From Candidatus Gastranaerophilales bacterium (GTDB taxonomy: Bacteria; Cyanobacteriota; Vampirovibrionia; Gastranaerophilales; Gastranaerophilaceae), in the NCBI GenBank assembly GCA_944323155.1, contig CALURL010000006.1, positions 21,159-85,158 on the forward strand: DNA of 64,000 bases, read 5' to 3'. The position numbers were made by a program, and so were the translations under genes. How positions within the stretch are numbered: the stretch's first letter is position 1; each line of letters starts with the position of its first letter. Under the pieces are notes generated by a model that was given only the letters and a program-made list of their open reading frames with translations, was not told where the DNA came from and did no database searches. Shown piece after piece: positions 6,362-49,467 of this stretch.

Positions 6362-6397
6362 AACCGCCTTGAAGAAACCTCAAGGCGGTTTAATTTT
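6362..6397. terminator. Bidirectional hairpin terminator between convergent genes
   Basis: AACCGCCTTGA-AGAAACC-TCAAGGCGGTT (11-bp stem), followed by TAATTTT and preceded by an A-rich run. Confidence 0.75.
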
Positions 6398-7159
6398 AAA
6401 ACCAAGGATAATCATCTTTTATCTGCCAGCCGTCATAGAATATCAAACCGGTACAGTAATTAGCATACTCTTTAGTAGGTTTTCCTGAGCAATAATCCAG
6501 AAGCTGAGATCTTTGTAACCCCAAACCTCCATATGGCTCTAATCCAGTTTTTTTGTATTGAAAAGTAAAGTATTTTGAGCCGCAACAAGCTTGTTGGGAA
6601 TTAACGTCCTTCTGGCAGCTATCAACATCTTTTGCGTAAGGATAAAAATACATATCAAAGACTGTTTTGGAATTGGTCGCAGCAAAACGAATTCCAAAAC
6701 CGCTTCCGTCAACAAGCTTAACCCAAACAGTATAATCATGCACCATTCTTTCAACAGAAAGAACATTCATATGCTTTCGTAAATAGGTATTGAACCACTC
6801 CTCAGTAGCTGATTCCTGAGTCAAATCCGGATCAGGCCAATTTTCAACTTCACCATATTCAACTTCTGCTAATTTTACAGCCTGTGAAAAAGTTGAATAG
6901 AATTTTTTTAACCTTGTCTCAGCAACACCTTTTTTGTGATTAGCAACCATAGAAGGAATAGTTAAGGCTGCGACAATGCCGATTATTCCTAAAGTAATTA
7001 AGACCTCTGCTAGAGTAAAGGCGGGTTTTATTTTAGATACCTTTGTTGAATTGCAAGAAATGCATTGTCTTTCAAAAAATTTTAAAGTTCCACAAACATT
7101 GGCGCAGGTATCTAGGCGCTTGCCCCCCCCCCAACTGCTCTTCTAAATCTATTTTTCAT
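6396..7159 (-). CDS. Prepilin-type N-terminal cleavage/methylation domain protein, phase-variable leader; currently out of frame at G10
   Basis: Track ORF 6396..6950 continues upstream in frame as KPA|FTLAEVLITLGIIGIVAALTIPS with no ATG/GTG/TTG. ATG at 7159 (AAGGAGG RBS) is 209 nt upstream (209 mod 3 = 2) and reads MKNRFRRAV+G10 then GCA AGC GCC TAG. One extra G fuses it in frame with no stops (checked codon by codon). C-terminus is GWQIKDDYPWF. Confidence 0.8.
7123..7132 (-). repeat. G10 homopolymer at codon 10 of pilin-like gene (off frame)
   Basis: 8+2 C counted on the plus strand. Confidence 0.9.
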
Positions 7160-7177
7160 AAAACCTCCTTTTATATA

Positions 7178-7206
7178 AATATATCAAATTTTCAAAAGAT
7201 TCGCAA
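7178..7206 (-). promoter_or_regulatory. Candidate promoter TTGCGA-N17-TATATT for pilin-like gene 6396..7159
   Basis: Minus strand: TTGCGA (7206..7201), 17-nt spacer, TATATT (7183..7178), just after the sulP stop. Confidence 0.4.
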
Positions 7207-8872: not shown

Positions 8873-9732
8873 CTAATACGGACTTTCATAATCATCAAAA
8901 GTATATTTTCTATTACAAAAGCTTTGATTACCCTTTACGCATTTTAAATAATCAAGATTTTCTTCCTGTAACACCCACGCAGAACAGCCACTGCCATTCC
9001 ACCAGCCATCTGCTCCAGTATCAGATGCAGGATTACACTGCTTGTAAGTAGAATGAGCTCCTGAACCGCCGCGGGGAATAATCCTGTTTCGTCCAACCTG
9101 AAATGTAAATGTGTCTACTCCCCAGCGATTTGGCCCTCTATTACCGTTTATATCGACATCAATATTAAAACAGTAATTATTACCTGAAAAAATGCCGCAC
9201 ATATTATCTTTTGCAGAACTAGCAGAGATTTGGTGGCCAAAACCGTAGACTATACCGTCTGCTGAAATTAAAGATGCACGGCTTCCGATTTCATCTACAT
9301 TATTATTAAGCAAATCTTTTCTCGCATCTTTTTGAAAACACTTGCCGCTATTGTTTTCATCAGGTGTACACACGCGCACATTTTTGATATATTTACTAAA
9401 CAAAATTGCGACATCATCCCAGGAATCATTTTCTAATGAAGGTAAAGACCAGTCTGATGGTTCGCCATAATCGTTCAGCATCATTGTATAGGCATTCGAT
9501 ATAGTTGAATATGCTTTTTTCAAACGAACAACTGTTTCTTTTTCCCTATGATTGGCAATTAAATTAGGCAATGTCAAAGCTGCGACAATGCCAATTATCC
9601 CTAAAGTAATTAAGACCTCTGCAAGGGTAAAGGCGGATTTTCTCGGTTTGCCAGACTCAATATAAGAGGTAAAATGGCCCTCTACGCGGCGCTTGCCCCC
9701 CCCCCGACAAGCTTTTTAAACAATCTTTTCAT
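8873..9732 (-). CDS. Prepilin-type protein, phase-variable leader; out of frame at G10; start overlaps murG stop
   Basis: ATG 9732 overlaps the murG TGA (ATGA). Reads MKRLFKKLV+G10 then GCA AGC GCC GCG TAG. G11 would give MKRLFKKLVGGGGKRRVEGHFTSYIESGKPRKSA|FTLAEVLITLGIIGIVAALTLPNLIANH..., joining track ORF 8873..9577 (155 nt offset, mod 3 = 2). Contains IDVDINGNRGPNRWGVDTFTF. Confidence 0.8.
9696..9705 (-). repeat. G10 homopolymer at codon 10 of pilin-like gene (off frame)
   Basis: 5+5 C counted on the plus strand. Confidence 0.9.
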
Positions 9733-28315: not shown

Positions 28316-29314
28316 ATGACACTATTTATAACACTTGTAGCATTCGTTTTTATAATAGGGCTTTGTATAGGAAGTTTTTTAAATGTTGTCATACTCAGAA
28401 CCCTATCTGAAGAATCAATTGTTTTTCCAGCGTCAAAATGTCCAAAATGCCAGCATCCGTTAAAATGGTGGCATAATATACCTTTAATATCTTATATTTG
28501 CCTTAAAGGCAAATGTGCTTTTTGTAAAGAACCAATCAGCATACAATATCCTATTGTGGAACTTTTAACAGGAATCATATTCACATTAATATTTTTAAAA
28601 TTCGGCATTTCTGTTGATACAATTGTGGGCTGGATTATTGCAAGTTTACTTATTATTATTGCAGGGACTGATTTTAAAGAAAAAGTTGTTTATGATATTC
28701 ACACACTTTCACTTGTTGGTGTAGGTCTTTTATACGCTGCAATAGTTACAGCTTATGGATTATTTGTTATGCACAATGCAACTGGAGAAATCACATTTAG
28801 CAAAGATTTACTTCTAAACAATCCTTTCACAAACTCAGTTCTTGGCATAATTGCAGGTATTGTTATTATGGAAGTATTTGCGAGATTTGGCTACCTTGTT
28901 CAAAGAGGTGTTAGAATGTTTGAAGTCGGCGATACTTATATTGCTGCAGGTTTGGGAGCATTTCTTGGCTGGAGAACACTAATTATTGCTCTTATATTAT
29001 CAGTTATATTGCAAGTTATATATTTTCTGCCGCTATTTATCAAAGATTTATTTTGTAAAAAAGAATGGAAAACGCTTATTCCATTTGTACTATTTGTAAT
29101 TTATGCCATAACATTTTTCTCACTAGAACATTATGGAATTATAGATATTTCAAACTTTGCATTATACAGTGCATTAACACTATTGCTTGCAGGTCTTGGA
29201 ATTTATACATGTTATAGAATATTTAAAGGTCTAAGAGAAAATCCATCATCTGCAACATGTTTACCGTTCGGACCGGCAATGGTTGTTGCCGCGCTAATTT
29301 TGTTAATTTTATAA
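28316..29314 (+). CDS. pilD: Prepilin peptidase (A24 family, PilD-like)
   Basis: Zn-finger-like CPKCQHPL...CAFCKEPIS, QYPIVELLTG, GTDFKEKVVYD and VGDTYIAAGLGAFLGW aspartyl motifs, multi-pass membrane. Confidence 0.85.
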   Translation: MTLFITLVAFVFIIGLCIGSFLNVVILRTLSEESIVFPASKCPKCQHPLKWWHNIPLISYICLKGKCAFCKEPISIQYPIVELLTGIIFTLIFLKFGISVDTIVGWIIASLLIIIAGTDFKEKVVYDIHTLSLVGVGLLYAAIVTAYGLFVMHNATGEITFSKDLLLNNPFTNSVLGIIAGIVIMEVFARFGYLVQRGVRMFEVGDTYIAAGLGAFLGWRTLIIALILSVILQVIYFLPLFIKDLFCKKEWKTLIPFVLFVIYAITFFSLEHYGIIDISNFALYSALTLLLAGLGIYTCYRIFKGLRENPSSATCLPFGPAMVVAALILLIL

Positions 29315-30175: not shown

Positions 30176-30799
30176 CTACAATGAAAGTATTCGCAAACTT
30201 TCTTTCAAAATATCTTCAGCAGACGCATTATCCGACAAAACAGAGACGGCTTTTGATAATGCGTTTTGTATTTCCTTGCGTTCATAACCCAGTGAAACAA
30301 GAACCATTTGAGCATCTTCAATAGCCTGATTATCCTGTTTTACCTCTGATATAGAAGTTATTTTTATCGGCTCTTTTGTTTGATAATTCATTAATTTATC
30401 TTTCAATTCCAATATAATTTTTTGAGCGAGTTTTGGTCCAACACCTTTAGCTCTGGTTAATTCTTTGTAATTACCTTCAATAACAAAGCCGATAAGTTCT
30501 GATGTTTCAAATTCATCAAGCAGAGTTAAAGCCATTTTTGCCCCGACTCCAGAAACTGAAATCAGGATATTAAATATATCTCTTGCTTCTTTATGCAAAA
30601 ATCCGCACAATGACATTTTATCTTCCCTATGCAAAAGAACAGTATAAATTTTGCCTTCTTGCCCCGGTTCAGGAGCAGAGTTAAAGTCTCTCAATGTTAC
30701 CTCAAGCAGATACCCGATTCCAAAAGTCTCTACGGTAACGTATGTTCCCTTTGAAGTATTTGATTTATTAGTAAAAATACCTTTTATATAATCGTACAT
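30176..30799 (-). CDS. ruvA: Holliday junction branch migration complex subunit RuvA
   Basis: MYDYIKGIF... N-terminus, two HhH motifs (VSGVGAKMAL, AKGVGPKLAQKI), C-terminal domain III. Confidence 0.88.
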   Translation of the reverse strand: MYDYIKGIFTNKSNTSKGTYVTVETFGIGYLLEVTLRDFNSAPEPGQEGKIYTVLLHREDKMSLCGFLHKEARDIFNILISVSGVGAKMALTLLDEFETSELIGFVIEGNYKELTRAKGVGPKLAQKIILELKDKLMNYQTKEPIKITSISEVKQDNQAIEDAQMVLVSLGYERKEIQNALSKAVSVLSDNASAEDILKESLRILSL

Positions 30800-32196
30800 T
30801 AACTCTCCTTTAAAGAACTTCTGATTTCTGCTACAGCACGGTCAAGCTCTTTATTCACACGTAATTCATCCTTAATTTTTTCATAAGAATAAAGCATTGT
30901 TGTGTGTTTTTTATTGAAATATTCTGCAATACATTCAAAACTTTTTTGTGTAAGTTCACGTGCGAGATAAACAGCAACATGACGTGCTGACGAAACCCTT
31001 TGATTTCTGGAAGAACTCAAAAAATCAGCTATAGAAACGCCATAGTGTTCACCTACTGCTTTTGCGACTTTATCAATTGTCAATGCTTTTTTAGAAGCCT
31101 CACAGTTAAGAACTTTTTTTGCAAATTCCAGCGTAATATCTGTATTTTCAATATCTGCGTAAGCACTGACTTTATTAAACGCACCTTCAAGCTCTCTTAC
31201 ATTATTTACAAAATTATTTGCGATATATTCAAACACAGGAAAATCAATTTTCAAACCGGCCTGCTCTGCAAGATTACTCAAAATAGCGACCCTTGTTTCA
31301 AAATCAGGCGGTGTAATATCAACAACAAGTCCCATTTCAAAACGGGTTCTTAACCTGTCTGGAAGAGTCGGAATATCTTTTGGCAGCCTGTCTGATGTTA
31401 TAACAATCTGTTTATTATTGTTGTGCAAACTGTCAAATGTATGGAAAATTTCCTCCATTGTATAAGTTTTACTTTCCAAAAATTGAATATCATCAATTAA
31501 TAAAACATCAACATTTCTATACTTTTGACGGAACTTATCCATTCTGGAATTTCTTTCTCCGCCATGCTGGAGATTTTTAATTAATTCATTAACATACTCT
31601 TCTGTTTTGATATATTTTACACGGAGTTTCGGCTTATTAAAAATAATATAATGGCCGATTGCCTGCATAAGGTGAGTTTTGCCAAGCCCTGAAGCGCCGT
31701 AAATAAAGAGCGGATTATATTTTTTTGCCGGATTTTGAGCAACAGTAAGCGCTGCTGCATGAGCAAAACGGCTATTTTCACCTACAACAAAATTTGAAAA
31801 TTTATATTTTAAATTCAAATTTGCAGATGACTGCATTTGAGCAAGATTGTCAACCATAGAAGAATCATCCGTATCAACTGTAAGAGAGCGTTTTTGTTTT
31901 GCAAACTCCTTTTTCTTCTCTTTTTGATATTTATCAGCAAGTTCAGCATCAAAAGTAATATGATAGCTTACGTCTTTGCCTAATACTTTTTTAAAGGCAT
32001 CAGTAATTTGTTTATTGTAATTGGATTTAACCACCTGTGGCGCAAGAGAATGAACTGTATAAACAGAAAAAACATTTCCGTCATAATCAGCGGCTTCCAA
32101 AGGTTCAAGCCACATTTGATATGCAGGTGTAGGAACTGTATCCCTTAATTCAGCCTTAACTTCACTCCAAAGATTTTTTACTTCCTGTGTTTCCAT
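30799..32196 (-). CDS. dnaA: Chromosomal replication initiator protein DnaA
   Basis: AAA+ Walker A GASGLGKTHL, LLIDDIQF, C-terminal DnaA signature (RNQRVSSARHVAVYLAREL). Stop overlaps the ruvA ATG (TAATG). Confidence 0.93.
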   Translation of the reverse strand: METQEVKNLWSEVKAELRDTVPTPAYQMWLEPLEAADYDGNVFSVYTVHSLAPQVVKSNYNKQITDAFKKVLGKDVSYHITFDAELADKYQKEKKKEFAKQKRSLTVDTDDSSMVDNLAQMQSSANLNLKYKFSNFVVGENSRFAHAAALTVAQNPAKKYNPLFIYGASGLGKTHLMQAIGHYIIFNKPKLRVKYIKTEEYVNELIKNLQHGGERNSRMDKFRQKYRNVDVLLIDDIQFLESKTYTMEEIFHTFDSLHNNNKQIVITSDRLPKDIPTLPDRLRTRFEMGLVVDITPPDFETRVAILSNLAEQAGLKIDFPVFEYIANNFVNNVRELEGAFNKVSAYADIENTDITLEFAKKVLNCEASKKALTIDKVAKAVGEHYGVSIADFLSSSRNQRVSSARHVAVYLARELTQKSFECIAEYFNKKHTTMLYSYEKIKDELRVNKELDRAVAEIRSSLKES

Positions 32197-48531: not shown

Positions 48532-49467
48532 CTAATATTTAAGGGAATTTAAAATTTTTGTATTATGAAGATACTTATTATAATATCTTTTACGGCTTTT
48601 TTGAGAACCAACTTTTGAATATATGAAAAATTTTATATTATCAAACTTCAGTTTAAACATATATTTATAGATATTATATGAATTTTGCATCATAAAATCT
48701 TCATAGAAATCGGATAATCTAGCATATTTCCACCAAATATGCCTCATACTATGCATACAATCAAAACGATTCGGGTTTGCACCGACGAAATGAACAATTA
48801 TAGGATTTTCTATTTTGTCATTAATATTAAGCCAGTATTGTTCACAATAATTGTATTCTCGACCAAGATTTATTTTTCGTTCATCAATCATAATATTTAA
48901 AGTATCTTGATCAGCACATTTTATATTTTTAACATTTTTTCTAACGTAATCGACTGTTTTTTCATAAAAATGTTCTTCACGCCATAATTTTGCATTAATT
49001 AAAATAACGCCAGCATTAAAATATAGTAAGCTTTTCAGGCCTATGCCCCCCCCCCCGGGAAGCGCCACTACTGCAGCATAATTGCTGCCAAGGTCAATAT
49101 TAAACAAATTTTTAAGAGAGCTAAGAACCATTGTATCGGAATCTAAATATAGAATCTTATCAATATCATTACACAATTCTGCAATCTTTATTCTAAACCA
49201 TGTAGCCATTGTAACCCAATTTACAAGAGGAAATCCCTTAAATTCGTCGCGTTCTACTTTTACAAAACGGATATTACAATGTCTGATATTTTTTACAGAG
49301 TTTATTTTTTCTATACTAGCGTCAGACAAGCCCGAATGGATTATAACAAACTCAATTTCATCACTACTGTCAGCATTTTTCAAAACAGAAATCATTGATA
49401 CAGATGTTATACCGGCATAATTCTCATCAGGAGCATATGCAATAGTAATCTTTTCTTTTTTCAACAT
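48532..49467 (-). CDS. Glycosyltransferase family 8 protein carrying an internal in-frame G11 tract
   Basis: 311 aa. IAYAPDENYA.., YLDSDTMVL (DxD), FNAGVILINAKLWRE are GT8 blocks. The tract encodes LPGGGGIGL near codon 137-141. Confidence 0.85.
   Translation of the reverse strand: MLKKEKITIAYAPDENYAGITSVSMISVLKNADSSDEIEFVIIHSGLSDASIEKINSVKNIRHCNIRFVKVERDEFKGFPLVNWVTMATWFRIKIAELCNDIDKILYLDSDTMVLSSLKNLFNIDLGSNYAAVVALPGGGGIGLKSLLYFNAGVILINAKLWREEHFYEKTVDYVRKNVKNIKCADQDTLNIMIDERKINLGREYNYCEQYWLNINDKIENPIIVHFVGANPNRFDCMHSMRHIWWKYARLSDFYEDFMMQNSYNIYKYMFKLKFDNIKFFIYSKVGSQKSRKRYYNKYLHNTKILNSLKY
49046..49056 (-). repeat. G11 homopolymer inside the GT8 gene (in frame)
   Basis: 5+6 C counted on the plus strand, followed by GGG. 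Coding strand is CCC-G11-CAT. Confidence 0.9.

Follow-up and report, generated by a model that had tools for sequence, protein, structure and literature searches.

A pilin-like gene with an out-of-frame poly-G tract in Candidatus Gastranaerophilales and the tract-linked gene family to which it belongs

Gastranaerophilales are common, uncultured members of the human gut microbiota. Here we analysed a 64,000-nucleotide (nt) stretch of a Candidatus Gastranaerophilales genome (assembly GCA_944323155.1, contig CALURL010000006.1, positions 21,159 to 85,158; hereafter, the window), and in it a pilin-like gene, referred to as locus 1, whose leader-coding part contains a run of ten G residues (G10) that places the gene body out of frame with its start codon. 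Profile and motif matches identify locus 1 as a pilin-like gene of the type IV (prepilin) class, and it belongs to a set of 74 genes in which a homopolymeric tract stands between a start codon preceded by a Shine-Dalgarno (SD) sequence and an FTLAE-type prepilin body. We consider it probable that locus 1 is a slipped-strand poly-G phase switch resting in its off state. Locus 1 is off in all strains sampled although selection keeps it intact, and this contrast, together with a conserved stop codon in the G10 frame, raises the question of whether G10 is silent or is read at a low level by slippage.

Anatomy, identity and genomic family of locus 1

Locus 1 lies on the minus strand, where an ATG (7159–7157) is followed by 24 nt, the G10 tract (7132–7123), GCA AGC GCC and a TAG (7114–7112). 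Direct reading therefore bears out the preliminary description of this DNA, which had the G10 frame from this ATG ending at that TAG. The prepilin frame runs one base behind the ATG frame, is open from 7142 to a stop at 6398–6396 (248 codons), and reads GGGKRLDTCANVCGTLKFFERQCISCNSTKVSKIKPA/FTLAEVLITLGIIGIVAALTIP, with the predicted cleavage site KPA/FTLAEV (the slash marks the cleaved bond). It contains no ATG, GTG or TTG ahead of the cleavage motif, the first being an ATG at 6950, past the hydrophobic helix; the earlier claim that expression of the pilin body depends on the tract thus holds for canonical initiation. At G11 the predicted product would have 254 residues, including a 47-residue leader with four cysteines. 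The features of the locus are listed in Table 1. A promoter of its own had also been proposed for the gene, and a consensus scan did recover the site, but promoter-like sites in this AT-rich stretch are no commoner than in shuffled sequence (five found versus 3.3 expected). The terminator behind the gene can also be read on the opposite strand, for the convergent phosphoglucomutase-family gene. For a 388-residue neighbouring protein (C1:5350–6516), a single look-up matched no record, and no family search was made.

Table 1. Features of locus 1 and the predicted leader peptidase (window coordinates)
Feature	Coordinates	Strand	Basis
Shine-Dalgarno sequence AAGGAGG	7164–7170	-	read directly; same SD-ATG layout before about 65 sister tracts
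Off-state short open reading frame (ORF), MKNRFRRAVGGGASA then TAG, 15 residues	7112–7159	-	direct translation
G10 tract, codons 10–13 of the leader; G11 would be in frame	7123–7132	-	run scan and translation
Conserved TAG closing the G10 frame, overlapping pilin-frame codons CTA-GAT	7112–7114	-	codon comparison across sister genes
Repeat-derived leader segment (..CGTAGATACCTGCGCCAATGTT..CTTTAAA..), encoding DTCANVCGTLKFF	7073–7114	-	blastn and six-frame searches; MAFFT alignment to about 30 copies from the genome, including non-coding ones
Remaining leader in the pilin frame (G-KRLDTCANVCGTLKFFERQCISCNSTKVSKIKPA)	7020–7124	-	translation; a 21-residue alternative stands here in L024 and L028
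Predicted mature pilin-like protein, 207 residues: FTLAEV hydrophobic helix and DUF6613 head	6399–7019	-	TIGR02532, DUF6613, AF2, pN/pS
Promoter-like site TTGCGA-17 nt-TG-TATATT	7178–7206	-	consensus scan, 9 of 12 matches, TG ahead of the -10 hexamer
Intrinsic terminator, strong; 13-base-pair stem with 7 GC pairs and a T run	6362–6390	-	terminator scan
Prepilin peptidase (PilD/A24), predicted to remove the leader	28316–29314	+	Pfam A24_N_bact (5.4e-35) and Peptidase_A24 (1.3e-7)

The prepilin identity of the gene, already put forward in the preliminary description, is supported by a score of 21.4 bits against TIGR02532, the prepilin cleavage/methylation domain (cut-off 16.3). The Pfam N_methyl score of 19 bits falls just below the cut-off of 21.2, which four sister genes pass, and the head matches DUF6613 (5.8e-13). 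The class III signal peptide motif [GA]/F-x-x-x-E, followed by about 20 hydrophobic residues, is present as KPA/FTLAEVLITLGIIGIVAALTIP. An AF2 model of the precursor, built on 47 homologues (pLDDT 87, pTM 0.78), has a helix spanning residues 37–89 followed by a six-stranded beta sheet, and the layout predicted in this model resembles that of the pilin 'lollipop'. A Foldseek search of the model against the Protein Data Bank (PDB) found nothing significant for the head (best E value 0.28), and in a profile search of PDB sequences locus 1 matched only the N-terminal helix of pilins and pseudopilins. The PilD homologue named earlier is confirmed by both peptidase profiles (Table 1). Furthermore, the genome contains five matches to the T2SSE family above cut-off, including a 672-residue PilB-like frame, and both PilB- and PilT-like ATPases are present. 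We infer that PilD cleaves the locus 1 leader and that the product is assembled into pili. Relatives of the neighbouring SulP protein all come from metagenome-assembled genomes of Candidatus Gastranaerophilales from gut samples.

A scan of the whole genome (1.79 Mb, 34 contigs, 33.6% GC) revealed that G/C runs have a bimodal length distribution, with 212 runs of 5, 10 of 6, 1 of 7, 2 of 8, 3 of 9, 74 of 10, 11 of 11, 2 of 12 and 1 of 14. In the window itself, seven tracts of at least eight G residues are found, against 0.09 expected from shuffles. Genome-wide, 74 tracts stand between an SD-preceded ATG and an FTLAE-type prepilin body. In 50 of these genes the tract begins 27 nt from the ATG and in another ten 30 nt from it, and in nine genes a C tract takes the place of the G tract. 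Position -1 of the cleavage site is Ala in 41 members and Gly in 33. Together the 74 gated genes make up about 4% of the genome length, and ten of them are in frame, with G11 as the consensus.

This anatomy suggests how the switch would work. The module, shared by many genes of the genome, consists of the SD sequence, the ATG, eight codons, the G tract and a stop that comes early in the G10 frame. Ribosomes reading a G10 message would make a 15-residue peptide and halt at the TAG, giving no pilin. The gain of one G by slipped-strand mispairing at replication would join the ATG to the 254-residue precursor, whose leader PilD would cut off at A/FTLAEV, making the product available to the type IV pilus apparatus. 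Cleavage would also remove the cysteine-rich middle of the leader, and locus 1 would have been resting off in all strains sampled. With ten of the 74 genes in frame, a cell would show a minor and shifting part of a large pilin or adhesin repertoire. A surface repertoire of this size, displayed stochastically by a commensal, would be of a scale otherwise discussed for pathogens.

Tract length and selection across strains, species and genera

To avoid gene-call bias, strains were sampled through exact matches to the neighbouring SulP, and also through the 184-residue off-state gene call and its 98%-identical variant. Three sister loci differ in tract length between strains. The giant pilin gene has G10 in L021 and G11 in L022 and the window; locus 2 has G10 in five other samples and G11 in three; and the locus at C1:215350, which is G11 and thus on in this genome, has G10 in eight assemblies, G9 in one and an interrupted tract (TGGTGGGCGG) in another. 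In these comparisons the flanking sequence is the same. Slipped-strand, replication-level length change is therefore real in this gene family, and we infer switching at locus 1 itself from it. The locus 1 tract is G10 in 13 of 13 assemblies (the window and 12 other samples, all metagenome assemblies and made with several assemblers). Because it is G10 in all of them and sister loci are variable, the label 'phase-variable' rests, for locus 1, on the family and not on locus 1. The interrupted tract of the C1:215350 allele (L080:2846–2856) has the same length as the intact one, has lost the off-frame TAG and has, within the pilin frame, a GTG; either a locked allele or read errors, at a coverage of 5x, could account for it.

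Several observations weigh against a simple switch. The G10 of locus 1 is kept even in alleles 12% apart at synonymous sites, so that over the divergence of the alleles the tract has either stayed at, or returned to, this length. Locus 3 (G10 in six of six other assemblies) and locus 4 (G10 in five of five) are likewise invariant. Among species representatives, no close orthologue of locus 1 was found by sequence (best match 47%, in another genus), and we therefore used synteny after sulP. The gene directly behind sulP carries G10 in two sister species (L081 and L083, with SulP proteins 83–84% identical) and in five more distant relatives, including members of other genera. In six of these seven, the prepilin frame lies one base behind a frame that stops 2–3 codons past the tract; the flank of L083 ends short of the cleavage motif. 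A search of 5.8 billion protein clusters for an in-frame, full-length locus 1 returned none, the G11 form retrieving only 184-residue off-state gene calls and a 73%-identical relative. In addition, MutS and MutL are intact in the genome, and we accordingly rejected absent mismatch repair as the cause of the tracts. The preliminary description had held that an invariant G10 would speak against its reading of the locus. At the level of strain consensus the tract is invariant, in all 13 assemblies and in the sister species; a consensus is nevertheless silent on minority cells, and sister loci do vary.

Could G10 be a miscount of a true G11 in assembly or sequencing? Illumina reads are poor across G runs (PMC9187656), and two contigs end within the locus 4 tract. 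Nevertheless, contigs from twelve other samples, put together with various assemblers (NODE_, k87_, scaffold and Logan contigs), have G10 at locus 1 throughout, and the same contigs show G11 or G9 at other tracts, which makes this explanation hardly credible. As a separate observation, the ends of contigs L064 and L069 and position 1 of genome contig C17 fall within poly-G tracts, as would be expected if tract lengths are mixed in the population or if Illumina reads drop out at G runs.

The mature region (621 nt) is intact in each of the nine full-length locus 1 alleles. Compared with the window allele, the ratio of non-synonymous to synonymous polymorphism (pN/pS) in this region is 0.04–0.26, with pS up to 0.12. 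Judged from these alleles, the protein is under purifying selection, though every consensus is out of frame. This bears on the idea that locus 1 is a silent copy, either a decaying gene or a recombination donor in the manner of Neisseria pilS, and is never expressed from its own start. Such a copy would be out of frame in every assembly, as locus 1 is, and in two assemblies the leader has been swapped for a segment like that of locus 2, a sign of recombination between family members. However, the nine alleles are all intact with low pN/pS, and the gene has retained its own SD sequence, ATG, promoter-like site and terminator, with G11 the in-frame length in both leader alleles. We therefore regard a silent copy as improbable.

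The stop codon of the G10 frame shows a further signature. We analysed the 61 G-tract genes in which the tract begins a multiple of three bases after the ATG. In the G10 frame, the stop falls 1–7 codons past the tract (at codon 3 in 37 genes and at codon 4 in 14) and is TAG in 52 of 61, whereas in the G9 frame it falls at a median of 10 codons (range 0–37) with the usual mix of stop codons. Where the overlapping pilin-frame codon encodes Leu or Val, it is TTA, CTA or GTA (NTA) in 38 of 38 cases, as compared with genome-wide NTA usage of 39% for Leu and 31% for Val; the first base of the codon varies while T-A-G is kept. The codon pattern points to selection on the stop of the G10 frame, with the caveat that the genes are paralogous and thus not independent. 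If the stop is selected, the G10 message would be translated often enough for prompt termination to matter.

We also counted exact G9–G12 tracts in genomes from 40 genera of the family (Table 2). Most tract-rich genomes peak at one length: 9 in G027 and G021; 10 in G000, G001, G018, G028 and G006; 11 in G023; and 12 in G019 and G030. G022 has no single peak and divides its tracts between G11 and G12. Reading frames were checked in G000 and G023, and in both the commonest tract would need one more base to join the frames; a sharp peak at the in-frame length minus one goes beyond what free slippage alone would give, adding to the points against a simple switch. One-length peaks of this kind could come from a mutational equilibrium, from gene conversion among the 5' modules or from function.

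Table 2. Exact tract counts in selected genomes of the family
Genome	G9	G10	G11	G12
G000 (this genome)	3	73	11	2
G001 (same genus as G000)	2	18	5	5
G018	11	93	9	0
G028	17	58	6	4
G027	36	2	0	0
G023	2	2	37	7
G019	2	1	5	25
G022	4	3	19	27

G023, which belongs to another genus (L035–L054), has the module in a different arrangement. All 23 inspected tracts are G11, and 22 follow an ATG by 29 nt; in the exceptional copy, the scan found no ATG and a GTG stands in its place. In the 22 ATG copies the poly-G module forms a separate upstream ORF that ends after 16–17 codons, and the pilin gene lies about 145 nt downstream of it, with its own GGAGG-ATG and a short classical leader (MKKRNA/FTLAE). Between the small ORF and the pilin gene, a hairpin, GCCGTGCC-N6-8-CACGG, is conserved in 21 of 23 copies and has a T run behind it. 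At G12, the small ORF would end about 10 nt ahead of this hairpin in most copies. The layout suggests a tract-controlled, phase-variable transcription attenuator, in which tract length would set how far the ribosome runs and hence whether the terminator forms. A tentative and rather unlikely generalization is that the SD-ATG-(G)n-early-stop module is a portable decoding device and more than a mutable tract: in the present genome, where it is fused to prepilin leaders, it would be read at a low level through slippage of the polymerase or the ribosome, a selected TAG disposing of the unshifted product, and in G023 it would serve as an attenuator.

A related account, which we hold to be unlikely but serious, treats G10 as the maintained working state, decoded either by RNA polymerase slippage on the C10 template or by a -1 slip of the ribosome on GGG GGG GGG G. 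Every cell would then make a little of each pilin-like protein, the early TAG would dispose of the unshifted product, and G11 alleles would be occasional up-mutations. A G10 conserved at locus 1 among 13 strains, sister species and different genera, and likewise invariant at loci 3 and 4, is in line with this account. So are the sharply peaked tract lengths, at 9, 10, 11 or 12 in other genomes of the family and one base short of joining in both genomes checked, the G10-frame stop close behind the tract and its retention through synonymous variation, and the purifying selection on a body that is out of frame in every consensus. By contrast, in-frame G11 is the consensus at 10 of 74 loci and differs between strains, which means that heritable switching exists and is in use. 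The messenger RNA around the tract (7165–7020) has an ordinary folding energy relative to shuffles (z = +0.39), which argues against a structured frameshift signal, and an Rfam search gave no match; no stimulatory structure thus follows the tract. RNA polymerase is much less prone to slip on G/C than on A/T runs, so that G runs serve less well as slippage templates. Moreover, deletion-biased mutation combined with selection against 'on' cells would give the same peak.

The slipped-strand switch is, on balance, the best supported and probably the correct reading: it suits the anatomy, in-frame alleles exist and vary from strain to strain, and there are close precedents. A switch alone leaves unexplained the peak at the in-frame length minus one, the invariant G10 and the apparently selected off-frame stop. 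All three could arise from deletion-biased mutation with selection against 'on' cells in the sampled niche, and they could equally come from low-level decoding of G10 by slippage; the two readings are not mutually exclusive.

The cysteine-rich leader and a dispersed repeat

Two properties of the predicted leader that had seemed distinctive did not withstand comparison with the family. A length of 47 residues is not exceptional, as the predicted 'on' leaders of the 74 genes range from 22 to 195 residues (median 27) and 23 of them have at least 47. Nor are the four cysteines special. The leader stretch 7114–7073 aligns, as an in-frame piece, to a dispersed repeat of about 60 nt, GCTACGCACGTAGATACCTG[CT]NCCAAT[AG]TTCGAG.GACTTTAAAG, with about 30 genomic copies. 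The repeat (GGTGCTACGCACGTAGATACCTG.NCAATATTCGAGAGACTTTAAAG) occurs singly or in tandem and, in frame within prepilin leaders, reads ATHVDTCANVRETLK; tandem copies inside other leaders read ATHVDTCANVRxTLK, and the 195-residue leader at C2:139373 contains up to three of them. Copies interrupted by stops lie in non-coding or intergenic DNA, for example near window positions 1483 and 1680. The locus 1 leader looks like a derivative of the type found at C4:120334 and C5:36072, minus about 24 nt between two TAGA words.

The leader is also exchangeable. In L024 and L028, assemblies from other samples, a cysteine-free leader of 21 residues precedes a gene body about 96% identical to that of the window, and the upstream region and tract differ from the window by one base. 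The length difference of 39 nt is a multiple of three, so G11 would still be the joining length. Comparison of L024:4204–4300 and L028 with window positions 7020–7122 and 9600–9695 revealed that the alternative segment is almost the same as the one in locus 2, which lies 2.5 kb from locus 1; judged by this exchange, members of the family recombine within the species. A single leader cysteine is present in the closest full-length homologue (P0002, 73% identity) and in the gene at the same position in the sister species L081, whose leader is different; both lack the cysteine-bearing repeat stretch.

These comparisons bear on whether the four cysteines (C-x3-C ... C-x2-C) could make up a working metal-binding or disulfide module within a long leader in the cytoplasm. 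Their spacing does resemble a zinc knuckle. However, the same gene body stands behind the cysteine-free leader, the four cysteines are conserved in neither P0002 nor L081, one of them is the conserved TGC of the repeat and a second sits where other copies have Arg. In addition, cysteine number climbs with leader length across the family (r = 0.80), and leader residues 1–20 have a pLDDT below 50 in the AF2 model. We consider such a module very improbable, and a zinc-ribbon-like Cys4 leader was rejected (leader cysteines: 0 in L024 and L028, 1 in P0002, 1 in L081). On present sequences, the leader is best seen as a dispensable spacer of which nothing but the reading frame is preserved, with the cysteine-rich middle as filler.

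Relation to known phase-variable systems

The switch at locus 1 would be of a familiar kind. Literature searches covering Gastranaerophilales and Melainabacteria returned no account of poly-G tracts or of phase variation in this lineage. The closest parallel is found in another gut commensal, Bifidobacterium breve, where replication slippage switches pilin precursors at G tracts placed between the signal-peptide part and the remainder of the protein (PMC9187656). In the sortase-pilus genes bbr_0113 and bbr_1889 of strain UCC2003, as at locus 1, a G10–G12 tract separates the two parts, the second part has no start codon, replication slippage provides the in-frame length and most cells are off (PMC9187656). 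The two systems differ in that the B. breve pili are sortase-dependent, with Sec signals and two loci, whereas locus 1 has a type IV prepilin leader, a conserved off-frame stop and a uniform module shared with its paralogues, 74 in all.

In Neisseria pilC1 and pilC2, a poly-G tract reportedly lies in the signal-peptide-coding region, as Jonsson et al. are said to have described in 1991. Poly-G switching of pilC is discussed in PMC5953494. The likeness to locus 1 lies in a G tract within the leader-coding part of a pilus-associated gene, on/off control by frameshift and the presence of mismatch repair. PilC is, however, a Sec-exported tip adhesin with two copies and tract lengths that vary widely between isolates, unlike locus 1, where the tract is inside a prepilin leader and invariant between strains. 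The Neisseria opa genes, with CTCTT repeats in their leader-coding region (PMC3745409), resemble the present family as a surface multigene family in which each copy has its own repeat and changing subsets are displayed; they differ in the pentameric repeat unit, in encoding outer-membrane proteins and in number (about 11 copies versus 74).

The poly-G loci of Campylobacter jejuni (PMC6321876) likewise comprise dozens of G8–G13 tracts in surface-structure genes of a low-GC genome that otherwise avoids G/C runs. A further likeness is a GT8 glycosyltransferase gene in the window (48532–49467) with an in-frame G11 at 49046–49056, the only tract of the window outside the pilin-like genes and C-tract modules. 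The present genome differs in its intact MutS and MutL and in lengths sharply peaked at 10, whereas Campylobacter is not known to have MutS/MutL mismatch repair and has tract lengths that are spread out. Programmed transcriptional slippage and -1 frameshifting, as in dnaX and insertion sequence (IS) elements (PMC1088944), share with locus 1 a conserved homopolymer that sets two frames one base apart and an early stop in the zero frame. Those systems use A/T runs or heptamers with a stimulatory structure; here, none was found and in-frame DNA alleles exist.

Two further observations concern tracts of the window. Adjoining pilD, on the plus strand, is a C-tract module with an SD sequence, an ATG, 29 nt and C10 (29363–29372; MLFKNNSRVCPPPDKLIK, then a stop); only short open frames lie downstream, and this copy may be degenerate. 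Finally, dnaA lies at 30799–32196, and on either side of it the tracts of the window, seven in all, have their G residues on the minus strand; tract orientation therefore does not flip at dnaA.

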